DNA of 43,471 nucleotides, taken from positions 1 through 43,471 of IMG/VR virus record IMGVR_UViG_3300032261_000021. One strand, written 5' to 3'. The position numbers were made by a program, and so were the translations under genes. Under the pieces are notes generated by a model. That model saw only the letters and a program-made list of their open reading frames with translations. It made no database searches and was not told where the DNA came from. This document shows, piece after piece, positions 1 to 32,743 of this stretch (positions are counted from its first letter, which is position 1; each line of letters opens with the position of its first letter). The DNA is from a virus (lineage: Duplodnaviria > Caudoviricetes).

Positions 1-1253
1 ACAACCCAAGAACCTGAGTCTAAGTGCATGTTTGGACTACTCTCTTGATCATCTTCAGCTGAGATATTTAATGGGTCTTTTGCGGAAACTTCAAGGACAG
101 TCTGACCACCACTACTAGGCCAACGAGTCTTGACATTTTTAGCATACTCAATAGCTGATTCTTTGTTGAAGAAGACGCCAGCACCTGTAATACCCATACG
201 GAGAATCGGAGAAGTTCTCTCAATTACTGGAGAGGTATTATTACGTGTAAGAGGACCACCTTGATAGATCTTCTCCTCAAGCTCTTTTCCATCAGGCATA
301 ACAACGTATCGGTCAGATGATACGATAATATAACCCTTATCAATTACCTTCTCTGGAGCGATGTTGCTATTAATACCCTGTAGGATAGTAAACCAGTTCT
401 CCATACGCATATCTATTGCATTGACCTGCTCTTTTCTTTCATACTCTTTCTCTACCTTCTCCATTAAGCCGTACAGGTTGTCTGTGGAGAACTCCTGATT
501 TGTCTCAAATACAGTCTCAACACTGGCACCATACATTCCGGACAACTGATCCTTAGCCTCCTCCCATGAGGAAATGTCCAACTTGGTGATGGCGACTGCC
601 AGCTTCAACATGTCTTTCTTGGAGATCTTGAATCCACGGACCTGATACTTTGCAACTCGGAGCAATGAGATGATTGGGTACAGGGTATCTACGTTAATGC
701 ACAGTCGGCGCTGAGATAAATCCTTCAAGAAATCTTGTTGGAATTCAAATTCATCTTTTGCGAAATCGTATGCCGCCATGTTGATAGTCCAGTCGAAGCG
801 TTTAAAGATGTCTGCCGGACTTTCAAATGTGTTAAGTACGATGACCTGCAATGTGTGATCTCGCTTACCTGTATACATCACTGACTTTGAAGTTCTTCCG
901 ATATTAATACACTCCGCAGTATAGGCAGGGAAACCATCGTTTGACGGGTCGAACTCCTCTAAAGCTTCGCGGCTGTTAGGCTTTAGTGTGGTTTCAACAA
1001 TCTTAACGTGATCCTTTGATTCGAATCCCTCAACTCCGTGGCAGAACAAGATGAAATTCTGCATGTCTTCTTGAGTGCGGAAATACAGGTCGATATCGTT
1101 AGCATCTTGGTTAGAGAACAAAGATGTAAGTGTTCCTCCGGCTACAATGGCATTACACTTACGTAGACCTTTCAACATCCCATCTGAAATCATGCTGAAC
1201 AGTGCATTACGTTCACTGGAGAATCGGGAGCCTTTATAAATATCAGTTTTCAT
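1..1253 (-). CDS. Nucleotidyltransferase, Pol-beta superfamily, CCA/poly(A)-polymerase-like head; runs off the left edge
   Basis: Not in the ORF track. Manual translation gives MKTDIYKGSRF...AIVAGGTLTSLFSNQDANDIDLYF...KRFDWTINMAAYD, i.e. a GG..DxD motif plus an RDFTINA-like motif. SD GAGGA precedes the ATG at 1253. Confidence 0.8.
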   Translation of the reverse strand, partial: MKTDIYKGSRFSSERNALFSMISDGMLKGLRKCNAIVAGGTLTSLFSNQDANDIDLYFRTQEDMQNFILFCHGVEGFESKDHVKIVETTLKPNSREALEEFDPSNDGFPAYTAECINIGRTSKSVMYTGKRDHTLQVIVLNTFESPADIFKRFDWTINMAAYDFAKDEFEFQQDFLKDLSQRRLCINVDTLYPIISLLRVAKYQVRGFKISKKDMLKLAVAITKLDISSWEEAKDQLSGMYGASVETVFETNQEFSTDNLYGLMEKVEKEYERKEQVNAIDMRMENWFTILQGINSNIAPEKVIDKGYIIVSSDRYVVMPDGKELEEKIYQGGPLTRNNTSPVIERTSPILRMGITGAGVFFNKESAIEYAKNVKTRWPSSGGQTVLEVSAKDPLNISAEDDQESSPNMHLDSGSWV

Positions 1254-1478: not shown

Positions 1479-1555
1479 TGGTCCGTATAAAGTGACTCGA
1501 ACACTTGACCCCTCCATCCCAAATGGAGTGCTCTGCCAGACTGAGCTATACACGG
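1479..1555 (-). tRNA. tRNA-Pro(TGG)
   Basis: Full cloverleaf; anticodon arm CTCCA-TTTGGGA-TGGAG; TTCGA T-loop; encoded CCA. Confidence 0.93.
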
Positions 1556-1560
1556 AATGT

Positions 1561-1690
1561 GCCATACTAACGCAATGGCTTCGGGGCTTTATCGTCTTCC
1601 GAGTAGCGACATCTCTCGCCGTTTTTATGAGGAGTTGCGCCGTATTGCCCGAAGACAACCTAAGGCTGATCCTACCACACGACTCTGGAT
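1561..1690 (-). ncRNA. Putative structured RNA in a tRNA spacer
   Basis: Long stem TTGTCTTC/GAAGACGA enclosing a GGCGA/TCGCT hairpin; no credible ORF. Confidence 0.4.
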
Positions 1691-1750
1691 TGGTGGGCGA
1701 GGTGGGATTTGCATGACTGCATACCCACACGACTTATCCAGTCGTTCCCA
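1691..1750 (-). ncRNA. Miniature tRNA-like element with ACCA end
   Basis: Hairpin ACGACT/AGTCGT; T-stem-like GTGGG/CCCAC with enlarged loop; 3' end CTCGCCCACCA; no anticodon arm. Confidence 0.45.
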
Positions 1751-1755
1751 TTGTT

Positions 1756-1836
1756 TGGCATGAAGGCGAGGAGTCGAACCCCTTACTACTGGTTTTGGAG
1801 GCCAGCTTGCATCCGATGCAATTAAGTTACCCGCAT
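1756..1836 (-). tRNA. Atypical tRNA-Trp(CCA), possible pseudo-tRNA
   Basis: Anticodon loop CTCCAAA, GTTCGAC T-loop, GCCA end; D arm replaced by the palindrome TTGCATCGGATGCAA; mismatches in three stems. Confidence 0.6.
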
Positions 1837-1839
1837 ATT

Positions 1840-1925
1840 TGGCGTGGAGTGCTGGATTCGAACCAGCATAGAGCTCTCGCTCACGGATTAACAGTCCGCC
1901 GTTCTACCTAATGAACCAACTCCAC
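1840..1925 (-). tRNA. tRNA-Asn(GTT) with long variable arm
   Basis: Acceptor GTGGAGT/ACTCCAC; loop CTGTTAA; variable hairpin GAGC-GAGA-GCTC; CCA. Confidence 0.92.
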
Positions 1926-1929
1926 ATAA

Positions 1930-2544
1930 TTATTTAAATTTTACCCGCATAAGGTGTTCAACATCCTTGGAGTTGCAGTTATACAGTGCCTCCAAGTATT
2001 CCGGTCTTAAATTAGGATTGTTATGGGCGTATCCTACAACATGGTCTACACAGTTGTCCCAGATCGGTTTTTCACCGCTAGGGTTTGTAAGTAGGCCAGA
2101 CTCATAGGCCCATGAATCTTCCTCTTCAATCTCCGAGATGTAGTCAGAGATTATAACCCTACCTGAAGCTTTGATTATATCAGGTATATTATTAAACTGA
2201 CCCGCTTGGTCGATGGCTATCAATGGAATGAACTCATCAACATTTAAGTCATCAACACTTAGGAACTTAATCTTAACTGTCTTACCTTTGTAAGGAGCAG
2301 TAAGGATACCAGATACCTTAGAGTAACGTGATTTTGGGAACTTATTAAGCATCCCTTCAACATGCCATTTAATTTGCGATTGAGTTCTACGCAGAAAAAC
2401 ACCCATATTCCTAGGGTTGTTTGCTGCCTCATCCAAGAGCTTAACTATCAGGGCTGTAGTTCTACCGGACCCAGCCTGTGCTGTTAATACAACAACACGC
2501 TTCTTGGAATTAATCACATCTTCTTGCATCTTGAGTAATTTCAT
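1930..2544 (-). CDS. Terminase large subunit ATPase-like protein, truncated and degenerate
   Basis: TAQAGSGRTT (Walker A-like), FLRRT, IAIDQ (Walker B-like), NNPNLRPEYLEAL; no nuclease domain; SD AAGGAG. Confidence 0.65.
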   Translation of the reverse strand: MKLLKMQEDVINSKKRVVVLTAQAGSGRTTALIVKLLDEAANNPRNMGVFLRRTQSQIKWHVEGMLNKFPKSRYSKVSGILTAPYKGKTVKIKFLSVDDLNVDEFIPLIAIDQAGQFNNIPDIIKASGRVIISDYISEIEEEDSWAYESGLLTNPSGEKPIWDNCVDHVVGYAHNNPNLRPEYLEALYNCNSKDVEHLMRVKFK

Positions 2545-2597
2545 ACATATCTCCTTCGCGGATTATTACTGCCAGCACAGCGCAAGCAGTTTAAATA

Positions 2598-2728
2598 TGG
2601 GGTCGGGGCTGGGATTGAACCAGCGACCTAAAGGCTAAATATCGAATCGTTGTCTATGACCAGCATAAGCTGTCTACCGAAGTAGAAACGATATGTCGCC
2701 CCTTTGTTCTACCACTGAACTACCCGAC
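2598..2728 (-). ncRNA. tRNA-scaffolded RNA with a 66-nt structured insert in place of the anticodon loop
   Basis: Acceptor GTCGGG/CCCGAC; D arm GTTC-AGTGGTA-GAAC; stem AAAGG/CCTTT; variable AGGTC; T arm GCTGG-TTCAATC-CCAGC; CCA. Confidence 0.8.
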
Positions 2729-2741
2729 TATAATAGATAGG

Positions 2742-2867
2742 CCAGTGACGGATAGCCTTTCTCCTCGCTAAAGGATACGTTCGGAATGCCTCAAGGGCGT
2801 CGATAGGACAGTGCCGCTCCACTGTTTACCCTATCCTACTACTCGCCAACTAAGGCTTTCGTTAATC
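2742..2867 (-). ncRNA. Putative multibranched structured RNA between tRNA genes
   Basis: Nested stems AGCCTT/AAGGCT, GATAGG/CCTATC, ACAGTG/CACTGT. Confidence 0.45.
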
Positions 2868-2943
2868 TGGTTGAGGATACAGGAGTCGAACCTGTGACCT
2901 ACGGGTTATCTGCCCGCTGCTCTGGCCTCTGAGCTAATCCTCA
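2868..2943 (-). tRNA. tRNA-Ile(GAT)
   Basis: Cloverleaf; anticodon arm GCGGG-CAGATAA-CCCGT; ACCA end; A at position 33. Confidence 0.9.
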
Positions 2944-2949
2944 TTTGTT

Positions 2950-3060
2950 TGTTGCGCCCCTTCAGTTGTGATTGTGCATCTACAGAACACAGATAATCTG
3001 TGGGAGTTCGTACACATCAGGGAACATCAGTTGGACGTCTTGCGGTTAGCTAATCCGCTT
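2950..3060 (-). ncRNA. Putative long-hairpin RNA in a tRNA spacer
   Basis: Apical CACAGA/TCTGTG stem extended by GAAC/GTTC and TGATGTG/CACAATCA; separate GCGG/CCGC hairpin. Confidence 0.35.
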
Positions 3061-3067
3061 CTTCTTC

Positions 3068-3144
3068 TGGTGGACCGTCGAGGACTTGAACCTCGGACTC
3101 CTCGATTAAAAGTCGAGTGCTCTAACCAACTGAGCTAACGATCC
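3068..3144 (-). tRNA. tRNA-Lys(TTT)
   Basis: Cloverleaf; anticodon arm CTCGA-CTTTTAA-TCGAG; ACCA. Confidence 0.95.
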
Positions 3145-3147
3145 AAT

Positions 3148-3227
3148 CGGTTACTCCATTAGGATTCGAACCTAACTTAATCCGCCATCACTACAAGGGC
3201 TTTGGGCACCTTGATACGGAAGGAGCA
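3148..3227 (-). ncRNA. tRNA-like element: acceptor plus T arm, with one long stem replacing the D and anticodon arms
   Basis: TGCTCC/GGAGTA acceptor; TTAGG-TTCGAAT-CCTAA T arm; TCCG/CGGA and CAAGG/CCTTG stem; ends ACCG. Confidence 0.55.
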
Positions 3228-3232
3228 TTGTT

Positions 3233-3316
3233 TGGTGTGGGCAGATGGATTCGAACCACCGCGCCTTTCAGAGAGTATTTACAGTCCCCCGCAATCGACC
3301 ACTCTGCCATGCCCAC
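3233..3316 (-). tRNA. tRNA-Tyr(GTA)
   Basis: Acceptor GTGGGCA/TGCCCAC; loop CTGTAAA; long variable arm; ACCA. Confidence 0.92.
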
Positions 3317-3321
3317 GTAAT

Positions 3322-3562
3322 AAAGTAACTTGCTTTTGTTCGGGGGAGTCAACTCTGACGACCTCCGCAATCCACATGCGGCGAGCTACGACACCAAGAT
3401 TCCTGTAACCGTCGCCTCTAGAAAGCTAAGATATGGGTTTCTAAGTGCTCAAAGTGAATCATTGATCTCTCAGGTCATGACTCCTGAGGTTGATCAAAGA
3501 CACACATAATAATCTGCTCTATCCACCGACAAAAGCAGCCTCGCAAGAAGCTGCGTTACTTT
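3322..3562 (-). ncRNA. Large (~240 nt) multibranched structured RNA leading the tRNA cluster
   Basis: Terminal pairings AAAGTAAC/GTTACTTT and TGCTTTTGT/ACAAAAGCA; at least five internal helices. Confidence 0.6.
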
Positions 3563-28922: not shown

Positions 28923-29199
28923 ACAGTTTGAGAAAGCATGGGAAACAAACAACGAATGCGACCCTATGGATGGCTGGGAAAACCTACGTTGTGAAGATGG
29001 CTACACTGACGAGGTAATTGACGGTCAATGGTGGGCATGGCAAGCAAGCCGCGAGGCTGTGGAGGTAGAGCTTCCAACAGCAGAGCCAGATAGAGGATCC
29101 GATTCTCAAGTCGATATTAGTGCGGGTTTTTCTAACAGGATGCGCTCTAAATGTATTGAATCTATCCGCGCCGCTGGCATCAAGGTTAAGGGGGAGTGA
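28906..29199 (+). CDS. Conserved phage hypothetical protein (SREQFE...WQASR type)
   Basis: Motifs typical of small enterobacterial phage proteins. Confidence 0.7.
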   Translation: MMTSREQFEKAWETNNECDPMDGWENLRCEDGYTDEVIDGQWWAWQASREAVEVELPTAEPDRGSDSQVDISAGFSNRMRSKCIESIRAAGIKVKGE

Positions 29200-30482
29200 T
29201 GAAAATTTATAGGGTTGGTGGTTGTGTCCGAGACTGGTTAATGGGCATTACCCCTCGCGACTATGACTACGTTGTTGTCGGTTCAACACCGGAGGAGATG
29301 CTAAGCCTAGGCTACACTCAGGTTGGATCATCATTTCCTGTGTTCTTACATCCCGAGACAAAAGAAGAGTATGCTTTGGCCCGAAGTGAAATTTCAACAG
29401 GACCTCTTCATACTGACTTCGCGGTTGATTTTTCACCAAACACATCTCTGGAAGACGACCTGAAACGTCGTGATCTAACAATCAACGCCATCGCTTTTGA
29501 TGTTGAAACAGGTGAGTTTATTGACCCTTACGGTGGATTGGAAGACATTGAGAACAAGGTGGTGCGGGCAACATCTTCAGCTTTTGCTGAGGACCCACTA
29601 CGTGTTTACCGTGTAGCTCGGTTCATGGCAACCTTGGAGGGAGAATGGACACTTGATTCTTTCACGTTCGCAATGATGAAGGAATTGGCACCAAGCTTGA
29701 CGTACATGCACATTAACCGACGATGGACTGAGTTCAGCAAGATGCTATCACACCCAAAAGCAAAAGTACGTAACTGGTTCATCGTTCTGGAGGCGTTGGG
29801 TGTTGAGTACGTCATGAAAGACATGCATGATATCCCGCAACCTGCCCTGCATCATCCGGAAGGAGATGTGTGGGAACATATCATGCAAGTTGTAGAAGCT
29901 GGCGGGGAATATTGTTCAGGCATCGTTCGATATGGGGCCTTATTGCACGATATTGGTAAACCTTACTGCTTCCAACGTCAAGGGAATCTGCACGGTCACG
30001 AAGGGGAGGGAGAACGTCTGGCTGGGATCATTAGCGCCGCATGGGGGGCACCAAAGAAATGGAGGACATTTGCTGAGGTTGTTGCCAAATATCATGGAAA
30101 AGCCCACGGAGTGTTTGCAATGAAGCCAGTAAACGTGTACCGTATGCTGAAAGATATCGCCCGCCGTGGTGTGGATATGGAAGATTTTATCCGTGTATGT
30201 GAAATGGATTCAAGAGGTCGTGGACCTGATAACTTCAACAGGGATTACTCACAAGCAAAATACATCCGTGCCGTGTACCGTGCAATGATGAACCCATACA
30301 TCCGTGATAAGGTTTCATCTGAGATAATTTCTCTCCGTGAGAAAGGTCGAGGGCCGGAGGTCTTGAAGGACAGATCTCTTGCTTTGTGGGGTGATATTGT
30401 ATCTAATGTATCTAAGACGTATAAATTGGTCGAGGATGAGATGGCAGATATCGAGGAGATTTTAAAAGGAGAAAGAACATGA
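29196..30482 (+). CDS. cca: tRNA nucleotidyltransferase (CCA-adding) with HD domain
   Basis: VGGCVRD..DYDYVV, RRDLTINA, EDPLR, HHPEGD, LLHDIGK. Confidence 0.93.
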   Translation: MMKIYRVGGCVRDWLMGITPRDYDYVVVGSTPEEMLSLGYTQVGSSFPVFLHPETKEEYALARSEISTGPLHTDFAVDFSPNTSLEDDLKRRDLTINAIAFDVETGEFIDPYGGLEDIENKVVRATSSAFAEDPLRVYRVARFMATLEGEWTLDSFTFAMMKELAPSLTYMHINRRWTEFSKMLSHPKAKVRNWFIVLEALGVEYVMKDMHDIPQPALHHPEGDVWEHIMQVVEAGGEYCSGIVRYGALLHDIGKPYCFQRQGNLHGHEGEGERLAGIISAAWGAPKKWRTFAEVVAKYHGKAHGVFAMKPVNVYRMLKDIARRGVDMEDFIRVCEMDSRGRGPDNFNRDYSQAKYIRAVYRAMMNPYIRDKVSSEIISLREKGRGPEVLKDRSLALWGDIVSNVSKTYKLVEDEMADIEEILKGERT

Positions 30483-31681: not shown

Positions 31682-32743
31682 ATGAAATCATATCAACTGT
31701 TAACATGTTTAAGCGGTAGCCGAGCATACGGCACAGACCTTCCAGAGTCAGACACCGATATTCGAGGTATTTTCTGTGCTGAGCCGAAATTTATCCGCAC
31801 CCCCTTCTTTAACTGCAATGAACTGAGTATTGCAGAGGAAGAAGATACCAAATATTATGAACTTACTAACTTCATGAAGCTCTTTGTTGGTCAGAACCCA
31901 AATATCATGGAGATCCTTTTCTGTGATGATCAGGATGTGCTTAGGATGACTTCAGAGGGAGCATATCTTCGAATGATGGCCCCTGATCTTCTGTCAAAAG
32001 AGTCAGCAAAGAAATTCTGTGGGTTTGCCAATGGACAACTAAAACGTATCACTGGGCACAATAAGTGGATTATGAACCCACAGCCTGATGAATGCCCTGC
32101 GATGATTGATCATATCCATTTGGTTCAGAGTTTCCTACACAATAATCAGGGTGGAATGACTACCAAACGGGCCCGTCATATCCTTAAGGTTCAAAACTCA
32201 ACGCATAAGCTTATTCCTTATGGTGGTAACATGTACGGGTTGATTGAGGATTTCCATAATGGTGGTTGCATTGCAGATGACGGGAGTATCATAAAGCGTG
32301 ACTACAAAAACTTCTCAGACTCCGAGAAATCAATGACACCGATAATGATCGTGAGCTATGACCCAGTTGAGCATGAGAAGGCCAAGAAGGATTGGACTAA
32401 TTACTGGGAGTGGAAGAAGAACCGTAACCCTGTACGTCATTCTCTGGAAGAGCAATTTGGATATGACACAAAACATGGTATGCATATCGTAAGGCTTCTA
32501 CGTATGGCTGAGGAGATCTTGACAGAGGGTACTGTTATTGTTCGCCGCCATGATGCTGATGAGTTGAAAGCTATCCGAGCCGGATCTTGGACATTACAGC
32601 AGATGTTGGAGTGGGCAGAAGAGAAGAGCGACCTGATCTTAGGGAAGCTATACAAGGAGTCAACTCTTCCAGAAACAACAGACTTAAACCTCGCAGCAGA
32701 TATCTTGATGGAGGTGCAAGAGTCATGCTGGAAGGAGATCTGA
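31682..32743 (+). CDS. Nucleotidyltransferase, RlaP / T4 NrdC.11-like
   Basis: GSRAYGT..ESDTDIRG, NPNIMEIL, YDTKHGMHIVRL. Confidence 0.85.
   Translation: MKSYQLLTCLSGSRAYGTDLPESDTDIRGIFCAEPKFIRTPFFNCNELSIAEEEDTKYYELTNFMKLFVGQNPNIMEILFCDDQDVLRMTSEGAYLRMMAPDLLSKESAKKFCGFANGQLKRITGHNKWIMNPQPDECPAMIDHIHLVQSFLHNNQGGMTTKRARHILKVQNSTHKLIPYGGNMYGLIEDFHNGGCIADDGSIIKRDYKNFSDSEKSMTPIMIVSYDPVEHEKAKKDWTNYWEWKKNRNPVRHSLEEQFGYDTKHGMHIVRLLRMAEEILTEGTVIVRRHDADELKAIRAGSWTLQQMLEWAEEKSDLILGKLYKESTLPETTDLNLAADILMEVQESCWKEI

Follow-up and report, generated by a model that had tools for sequence, protein, structure and literature searches.

A phage RNA family that carries a conserved structured module within a tRNA body

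The 43,471-nt stretch of phage DNA analysed here (the window) carries, on its minus strand, a complete RNA gene of about 132 nt (2598–2729) in which a tRNA body holds a structured insert at the anticodon loop. Comparison with its homologs indicates that the gene belongs to a real, selected family of phage RNAs with a clear anatomy. The family comprises 24 distinct sequences, including the window copy, from rV5-like, N4-like, lambdoid, jumbo and plasmid-like phages. We propose that this tRNA-scaffolded RNA works in trans on a host protein, either by inhibiting it or by serving as a decoy for it; the protein would most likely be an anti-phage defence enzyme. We give this reading a probability of roughly 0.45. 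An earlier note on the window, written from its letters, had described a natural tRNA scaffold displaying a structured domain, and this description is borne out by the match to the tRNA model and by covariation across the family.

The Rfam tRNA model RF00005 matches positions 2729–2600 with 40.7 bits (cut-off 29) and places 65 nt inside the anticodon loop. The strand, which the earlier note left unstated, is minus (2729–2598), and we discarded a plus-strand fold of the element as the wrong strand. Nothing besides the tRNA family scored on the element in an Rfam scan at E values up to 5. Default ARAGORN missed the element and called five normal tRNAs in the same cluster (Pro, Asn, Ile, Lys and Tyr); the 150 calls made under relaxed settings were set aside as noise.

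Most of the tRNA body is as first described, including the D arm (2706–2720), the variable loop (AGGTC) and the T arm (2608–2629), which are placed by the Rfam alignment and by family covariation. The acceptor end had been read as a 6-bp stem followed by CCA and needs correction: in the tRNA register it has seven positions, with A1 of the 5′ strand (2723–2729) mismatched to C72 of the 3′ strand, and is followed by C73 and just "CA" (2598–2607), leaving the CCA short by one base. Between AAAGG and CCTTT lie exactly 66 nt (2700–2635), as the note had claimed, and the 5′ strand of this anticodon-stem remnant (2698–2704) pairs with 2630–2635 in the window copy only. All the helices that the note listed within the insert are present. 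In 5′ to 3′ order, the insert contains the first strand of a closing helix (ATATCG, 2689–2694), a UU dinucleotide with hairpin 1 (2673–2688), hairpin 2 (2661–2672), hairpin 3 (2652–2660), an AACGA-YY segment (2645–2651) and the second strand of the closing helix (CGATAT, 2639–2644). Folding z-scores are modest, both for the whole RNA (-2.41, with 4 of 200 shuffles as good) and for the insert alone (-2.43, with 2 of 200), and the strong support for the structure comes instead from covariation across homologs.

BLAST found the insert first in Escherichia phage Jgk1 and then in Pseudomonas phage Littlefix, and pattern searches of contigs from viruses, metagenomes and genomes supplied the further members. 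Two public contigs (L005 and L131) are identical to the window at this locus; they may be its source and were counted with it as one sequence. Alignment A1 has 23 rows and A2 has 24; neither includes L012, which nearly duplicates L004. Pattern matches attributed to chance were dropped (L055 and L066, 2 of 20; L032, L037 and L047, 3 of 18; 33 of 49; and 42 of 61), as was a match in Aeromonas phage AhSzq-1 that consists of a short hairpin without a tRNA body; L037 also failed a filter applied to the matches. The module lies inside a tRNA body in 15 of 15 metagenome matches and in the single genome match; in a looser viral scan this was true of 19 of 61 matches, the other 42 being those judged by eye to be chance. 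Members in the training set of our family model, R1, score 97–155 bits, among them the window element at 126.6 bits, and ordinary tRNAs and other insert-bearing tRNAs score at most 63 bits. One member, L144, was recovered without any constraint on the insert, in a search of 7 of the 64 parts of the collection, and scores 106 bits; it is the only member from such a search.

Across alignment A2, 98.5% of cells are paired and two-sided changes occur at 19 of 36 pairs. None of 500 shuffles reached this level, and sliding the partners left 34–50% of cells paired. A2 was fitted to the structure under test, but an unfitted MAFFT alignment gave 96.4% paired cells and 17 pairs with two-sided changes, and RNAalifold predicted the same helices unprompted. 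The members are related, so these paired-cell counts overstate the number of independent events. Two-sided changes fall at all seven acceptor pairs, all four pairs of hairpin 2, three of five in the T stem and two of three in hairpin 3, and all seven acceptor pairs are formed in 19 of 23 aligned members. Other parts of the RNA never vary in the family: the hairpin-1 stem TCTAC/GTAGA (24 of 24), the UU that precedes it and AACGA, with variation in hairpin 1 confined to its loop of 3–5 nt. Column identity is uneven, at 0.58 for the acceptor, 0.92 for hairpin 1, 0.93 for the D arm, 0.98 for AACGAYY and 1.0 for UU. Some of the core's invariance reflects ascertainment, since most search patterns contained these motifs; scans with hairpin 1 left free, and the insert-unconstrained sample covering 7 of the 64 parts, found no member with a different hairpin 1. 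When inserts are folded one sequence at a time, several members score weakly (z from -0.1 to -4.0). These comparisons indicate strong selection on both the structure and the sequence of the insert, with the elbow and a paired acceptor kept as shape rather than as identity.

How the insert is closed is less clear-cut. The earlier note saw a perfect four-way junction without unpaired bases, closed by ATCGTT/AACGAT, and mentioned ATATCG/CGATAT as an alternative. Both helices are available, since CGAT occurs twice in tandem and ATCG can find a partner in each copy. Register A joins 2687–2692 to 2646–2651, and register B joins 2689–2694 to 2639–2644, which contains the second tandem copy. The isolated insert has register A as its predicted minimum, as the note had it, whereas the whole RNA prefers register B (-41.3 versus -38.1 kcal/mol), and folding ensembles are split between the two across family members. 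In the 24-row alignment both registers pair 98.4–98.5% of cells. Register A, however, incurs one broken pair and one wobble on the family alignment. Register B absorbs the variation in the tandem: three changes give U-G, and a further one, two-sided, turns C-G into U-A (L144/L263). We favor register B on the strength of this one informative compensatory event. The junction is probably not perfect, because that change fits the alternative closing helix, and under register B the UU and AACGAYY segments would likely be unpaired junction strands. The closing helix may also slip between the two registers by way of the CGAT tandem.

The family is rare and its genomic settings are diverse. In phage-plasmids, which from their neighboring genes we take to be P1-like and SSU5-like, the module gene follows tRNA-Asn or Asn-Tyr and has the acceptor GCCGGTT/AACCGGC-ACCA. 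Four related plasmids (L258–L261) have an ordinary tRNA-Thr(UGU) with an identical acceptor in the same slot. By these comparisons, the module moves between tRNA bodies as a cassette would. Plasmid records with the module number 11, and those matching the tRNA locus around it number 1227. It is also present in 6 of 5426 E. coli genomes, all six copies being on plasmids and annotated "tRNA-OTHER". Other copies lie in tRNA clusters, on N4-like phage contigs and on phage contigs of 135–380 kb, and a genome bin of Orrella has the module too. The range of hosts includes at least Escherichia, Salmonella, Pseudomonas and that bin. When we looked for the orthologous slot in close relatives, only an identical contig was found, and the loci of Klebsiella phages 05F01 and Seu621 had no match to the family. 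Three loci contain rearranged or unusual tRNA bodies. An annotated tRNA-Ile of Shigella phage Moo19 (L018:2463–2535) is chimeric: its 5′ half is like the tRNA-Ile of Jgk1 and its 3′ end resembles the body of the Jgk1 element, consistent with recombinational deletion between tRNA arms. In plasmid L259 (621–697), a tRNA-Arg(UCU) arm sits on the acceptor that holds tRNA-Asn in sister plasmids, an instance of arm swapping. Littlefix (L015, about 2415–2490) has a second tRNA body with a shortened anticodon arm directly upstream of its family member.

At four lambdoid loci, the module occupies the loop of a stem directly upstream of an N-like gene, and the acceptor of the module's tRNA body forms the upper end of a long stem that is a homolog of the N-leader stem of lambda. 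Matches to N-like genes were found in L034 and L035, and the element follows cI in L034 and rexA-rexB in L036. In lambda, the N leader is transcribed early and its stem is processed by RNase III. The position of these copies thus implies very early transcription. One study, in the part consulted, says no more than that lambda has several RNase III cleavage sites, with the N-leader paper cited there (PMC5371410). The loop of the N-leader stem differs in content between phages: lambda and three Yersinia phages have folded RNAs there that are unrelated to the module, and Hafnia phage Pocitis76 has a tRNA body whose arm is abnormal. This stem is a hypervariable slot for RNA cargo in lambdoid phages (L324–L328, L034–L036 and L042). 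Lambda PreS/LPR1 was considered as a precedent for the slot and rejected, since the consulted part of its description places it between ea10 and ral, outside the N leader (10.1101/2024.10.31.621285).

In our proposed mechanism, host RNase P and 3′ trimming would release a stable RNA of about 130 nt, and RNase III would release it instead from lambdoid N leaders. The tRNA body would secure processing and stability, much as the available account of engineered scaffolds describes (PMC3753655). The invariant hairpin-1 stem, UU and AACGA would form the binding surface, with hairpins 2 and 3 serving a structural role, and this invariant face would bind a host molecule in trans. Among the 77 of 196 flanking open reading frames (ORFs) that were scanned, no family was common to different phage groups except HNH endonucleases, which makes a host-encoded partner more likely. 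We place a defence target first because the distribution is rare, patchy and allele-swapped, the lambdoid position is early and no partner gene is linked. An accessory function of any kind, counter-defence among others, would be compatible with a patchy distribution and with early expression. A more far-reaching version of the idea, which we hold more tentatively, is that phages arrived at the scaffold principle by their own evolution, that tRNA genes and the N-leader stem are interchangeable display slots for folded RNA effectors, that the module inhibits a host immune enzyme without any protein component and that recombination through the D and T arms spreads it among unrelated phages.

The RNA might instead bind a housekeeping machine of the host, such as RNA polymerase or a Nus factor, an RNase, or the ribosome or a translation factor, and thereby tune host or phage expression. 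Its placement within long tRNA transcripts and, in lambdoid phages, within the N leader, its conserved elbow and a host range that takes in Escherichia, Salmonella, Pseudomonas and the Orrella genome bin would all suit such a target. We nevertheless consider this unlikely, as a universal target should have led to a wider spread than 11 plasmid records against 1227 with the matching tRNA locus, and as neither acceptor length nor CCA is kept in the way that delivery to the ribosome requires. The acceptor helix measures 8–9 bp in L015, L034 and L035 and 15–17 bp in L119 and L134. Each of the four bases is found at the discriminator position in some member, and only 9 of 23 members encode CCA at positions 74–76. 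The same features speak against an effector of the ribosomal A site, which had been among the first suggestions. Nor is the element predicted to read codons. It has the D arm, T arm and paired acceptor of a decoding tRNA, but in place of a 5-bp anticodon stem and a 7-nt loop with U33 and R37 there are 65–66 nt of insert; positions 27–31 and 39–43 form five pairs in the window copy alone and at most three in 22 of 23 aligned members. An acceptor identity of 0.58 and the free discriminator base are likewise at odds with recognition by a particular synthetase.

We regard as improbable a third reading, in which the module acts as a small self-cleaving ribozyme and halves the tRNA body, for example to yield cyclic-phosphate fragments that trigger host RNA repair (RtcR). 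A four-way junction with an unpaired core that never varies and peripheral hairpins that do is indeed reminiscent of a ribozyme. Yet in the window and 10 homologous loci no Rfam covariance model of a ribozyme scored, the module was never found outside a tRNA body, and cleavage would cancel the stability that the scaffold confers. The same Rfam search returned no group I intron, no riboswitch and no known family beyond the tRNA body; a match to a known Rfam family was one of the outcomes that the earlier note had named as refuting it.

We put just as little weight on the module being an aptamer, or a switch with two states, that responds to a small ligand, of which an immune nucleotide signal is an example; the CGAT tandem would provide the two states. 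That both registers pair in 98.4–98.5% of cells, that their energies lie within about 3–4 kcal/mol and that the isolated insert prefers register A are what such a switch would lead one to expect. Besides the lack of a riboswitch family match in Rfam, however, the element has no expression platform and no fixed downstream gene, and a stoichiometric RNA sponge would be costly.

If the insert were an intron, its removal by splicing should leave a normal tRNA, and unexplained introns have indeed been reported in the tRNAs of Lak phages, as far as the consulted part of that report goes (10.1101/356790). We enumerated every single excision and accepted as canonical an arm with at least four pairs, Y32, U33 and R37. 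Such an arm could be obtained from 18 of 49 distinct insert-bearing tRNA bodies used as comparators (drawn from 53 single-body cases among 122 parsed loci), against 6% of shuffles, with the break mostly after position 28. In the window copy, the one copy with a 5-bp stem in the anticodon register, no single excision yields a canonical arm in the standard register, and one off-register solution has four pairs. Only 2 of the 24 members give arms at all, both weak (4 of 5 pairs) and with differing anticodons, which is close to the shuffle rate. In RNA-library contigs with the phage-plasmid allele, possibly derived from DNA, no joint spans the insert, and one raw-read run yielded 0 reads. By the excision counts splicing is very improbable, since a weak arm in 2 of 24 members contrasts with 18 of 49 comparators; by sequence there is no restorable intron, and splicing of the insert was an outcome that the earlier note had named as refuting it. 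A functionless dead tRNA or selfish cassette spread by recombination between conserved D and T arms, which could point to the swapped arm in L259 (an Arg arm on the Asn-slot acceptor), the chimeric tRNA-Ile of Moo19 and the imperfect acceptor end of the window copy, is equally hard to credit given compensatory changes in four helices, an invariant core in unrelated phage groups and no linked mobility gene among the flanking ORFs scanned.

The inhibitor or decoy that we favor has relatives in form among known RNAs. In tmRNA, a large domain replaces the anticodon arm of a tRNA-like body. The element differs in keeping a full D stem, in having no alanine identity, tag ORF or pseudoknots, and in its size of about 130 nt, and neither ARAGORN nor Rfam called a tmRNA in the window. 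YrlA, a bacterial Y RNA, has a permuted layout. It is like the element in being, as far as its consulted description goes, a non-decoding RNA that joins a tRNA-like domain to a second module. Its model (RF02553) gives no score on the element and 21–31 bits in homologous loci, a weak, cross-gene similarity against a cut-off of 69, and no Ro60 gene was seen among the 77 of 196 flanking ORFs scanned. A role comparable to the decoy considered here appears in the available part of Hughes et al., where YrlA is proposed to be a competitive inhibitor of an anticodon nuclease (PMC7790460). Engineered tRNA scaffolds from the Ponchon and Dardel group, in which host factors process and protect the cargo, keep the acceptor, D and T arms and use the anticodon stem-loop as the insertion site, according to the part of that work consulted (PMC3753655); the element shares this plan, but it is natural, its cargo is a selected and conserved module, and most members have no paired anticodon stem.

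Oversized phage tRNA genes offer a further comparison. An RNA anti-CRISPR role by mimicry of a Cas12a repeat, a hairpin with a conserved U at the first loop base and an AU-rich 5′ flank, was rejected for hairpin 1, where that base is U in 16 of 24 members and G, A or C in 8 of 24 and the 5′ flank is the paired closing helix. A resemblance of the linker to a sarcin-ricin loop or kink-turn was dropped by eye, as the linker varies. The KVP40 pseudo-tRNAs are likewise oversized phage tRNA genes with inserts, and the D and T ends of the window copy are 93% and 89% identical to those of pseudo-tRNA-3 over 27 nt each. Pseudo-tRNA-3 can restore an anticodon arm (Asn GTT), however, and the element family cannot. 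The "enigmatic" tRNA introns of Lak megaphages (10.1101/356790) are also conserved inserts in oversized genes; the comparison with them covers their published description, as far as consulted. RNA C and RNA D of T4 (NC_000866; PMC9697503) also come from a phage tRNA cluster and are described in the text available as stable, with an unknown function; the element has no similarity to them. The module is absent from T4 RNA C and D, from the T5 cluster region and from the KVP40 pseudo-tRNAs.

A separate class of phage tRNAs has inserts of 45–65 nt after position 28 with a perfect anticodon arm downstream (L138, L142, L181, L191, L194, L198, L199, L206, L234, L237 and L244, together with KVP40 pseudo-tRNA-3 at L003:2003–2118). 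Their anticodon arms are of Asn, Lys, Arg, Phe, Cys and other types, and many of the inserts have a common hairpin followed by ACAGCAA, or GTTACTTC at the end. These inserts are candidate non-canonical phage tRNA introns.

We rate the architecture of the element as precedented (tmRNA, YrlA, engineered scaffolds and oversized phage tRNAs) and the module itself as undescribed. A targeted literature search of a collection with few subscription papers found no account of this RNA, nor is it described in the consulted parts of reports on Retron-Kva2 (10.64898/2026.07.11.737809), Minerva (10.64898/2026.09.22.753630) or AcrIIIA1 (PMC11662646). Annotation pipelines label such genes "tRNA-OTHER" or overlook them, and an RNA family common to lytic, temperate and plasmid-like phages stays hidden as a result. 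Insert-bearing tRNA bodies are frequent in viral contigs and fall into several classes. If the module does inhibit a host protein, it would be a new, RNA-only type of phage effector and would give insight into odd phage tRNA genes. The system is tractable, with 132 nt, no evident partner gene, an allele of a tRNA-Thr slot and defined invariant bases.

The window is a fragment of a phage genome and encodes ribonucleotide reductase, ligase, thymidylate synthase and tRNA nucleotidyltransferase. Its NrdA is closest (67–70%) to those of 137–155 kb enterobacterial phages such as UPEC06, W70, CR9 and SSBI34, a group that we take to be rV5-like. The element lies in a minus-strand cluster (1479–3316) of tRNA genes (Tyr, Lys, Ile, Asn and Pro), tRNA-like genes and structured RNAs, with which it is likely co-transcribed; a promoter scan of the cluster gave nothing above chance. 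A CCA-adding tRNA nucleotidyltransferase on the plus strand (29196–30482; PHROG 2244, E = 7e-105; Pfam PolyA_pol) could complete the 3′ end of the element. It is one of three nucleotidyltransferase-family genes, the others being at 3–1253 (minus) and 31682–32743 (plus), and the trio also includes an RNA-repair type of the RlaP family.

The cluster has several other unusual members on the minus strand. Within it, 1930–2544 encodes a P-loop ATPase-like protein of 204 amino acids whose sole phage relative in GenBank, 37% identical, is likewise in a tRNA cluster, that of Klebsiella phage 05F01. A tRNA-Trp(CCA)-like gene (1756–1839) has a 6-bp D stem, a 9-nt loop in the anticodon region and a weak match to the tRNA-Sec model (22 bits); together with the next element, it is 86% conserved in Klebsiella phage Seu621, where it is unannotated. 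Two further tRNA-like RNAs lie at 1688–1752 and 3146–3228 (z -2.9 and -2.2); one has an extra hairpin within its T loop, and the other has a T arm and acceptor and no D arm. More structured non-coding stretches, with no Rfam match, occupy 3320–3560, 2735–2862 and 1556–1690. By eye, Jgk1, an unannotated N4-like phage, appears to have a permuted tmRNA with a tag peptide at about 1950–2680 of its sequence (L001), where default ARAGORN makes no call. Finally, separate from the element, 2946–3060 shows weak similarity to T4 RNA D (species II), at 80% over 35 nt (3017–3050; E = 0.014), and is possibly a homolog of T4 RNA D in an unrelated phage group.
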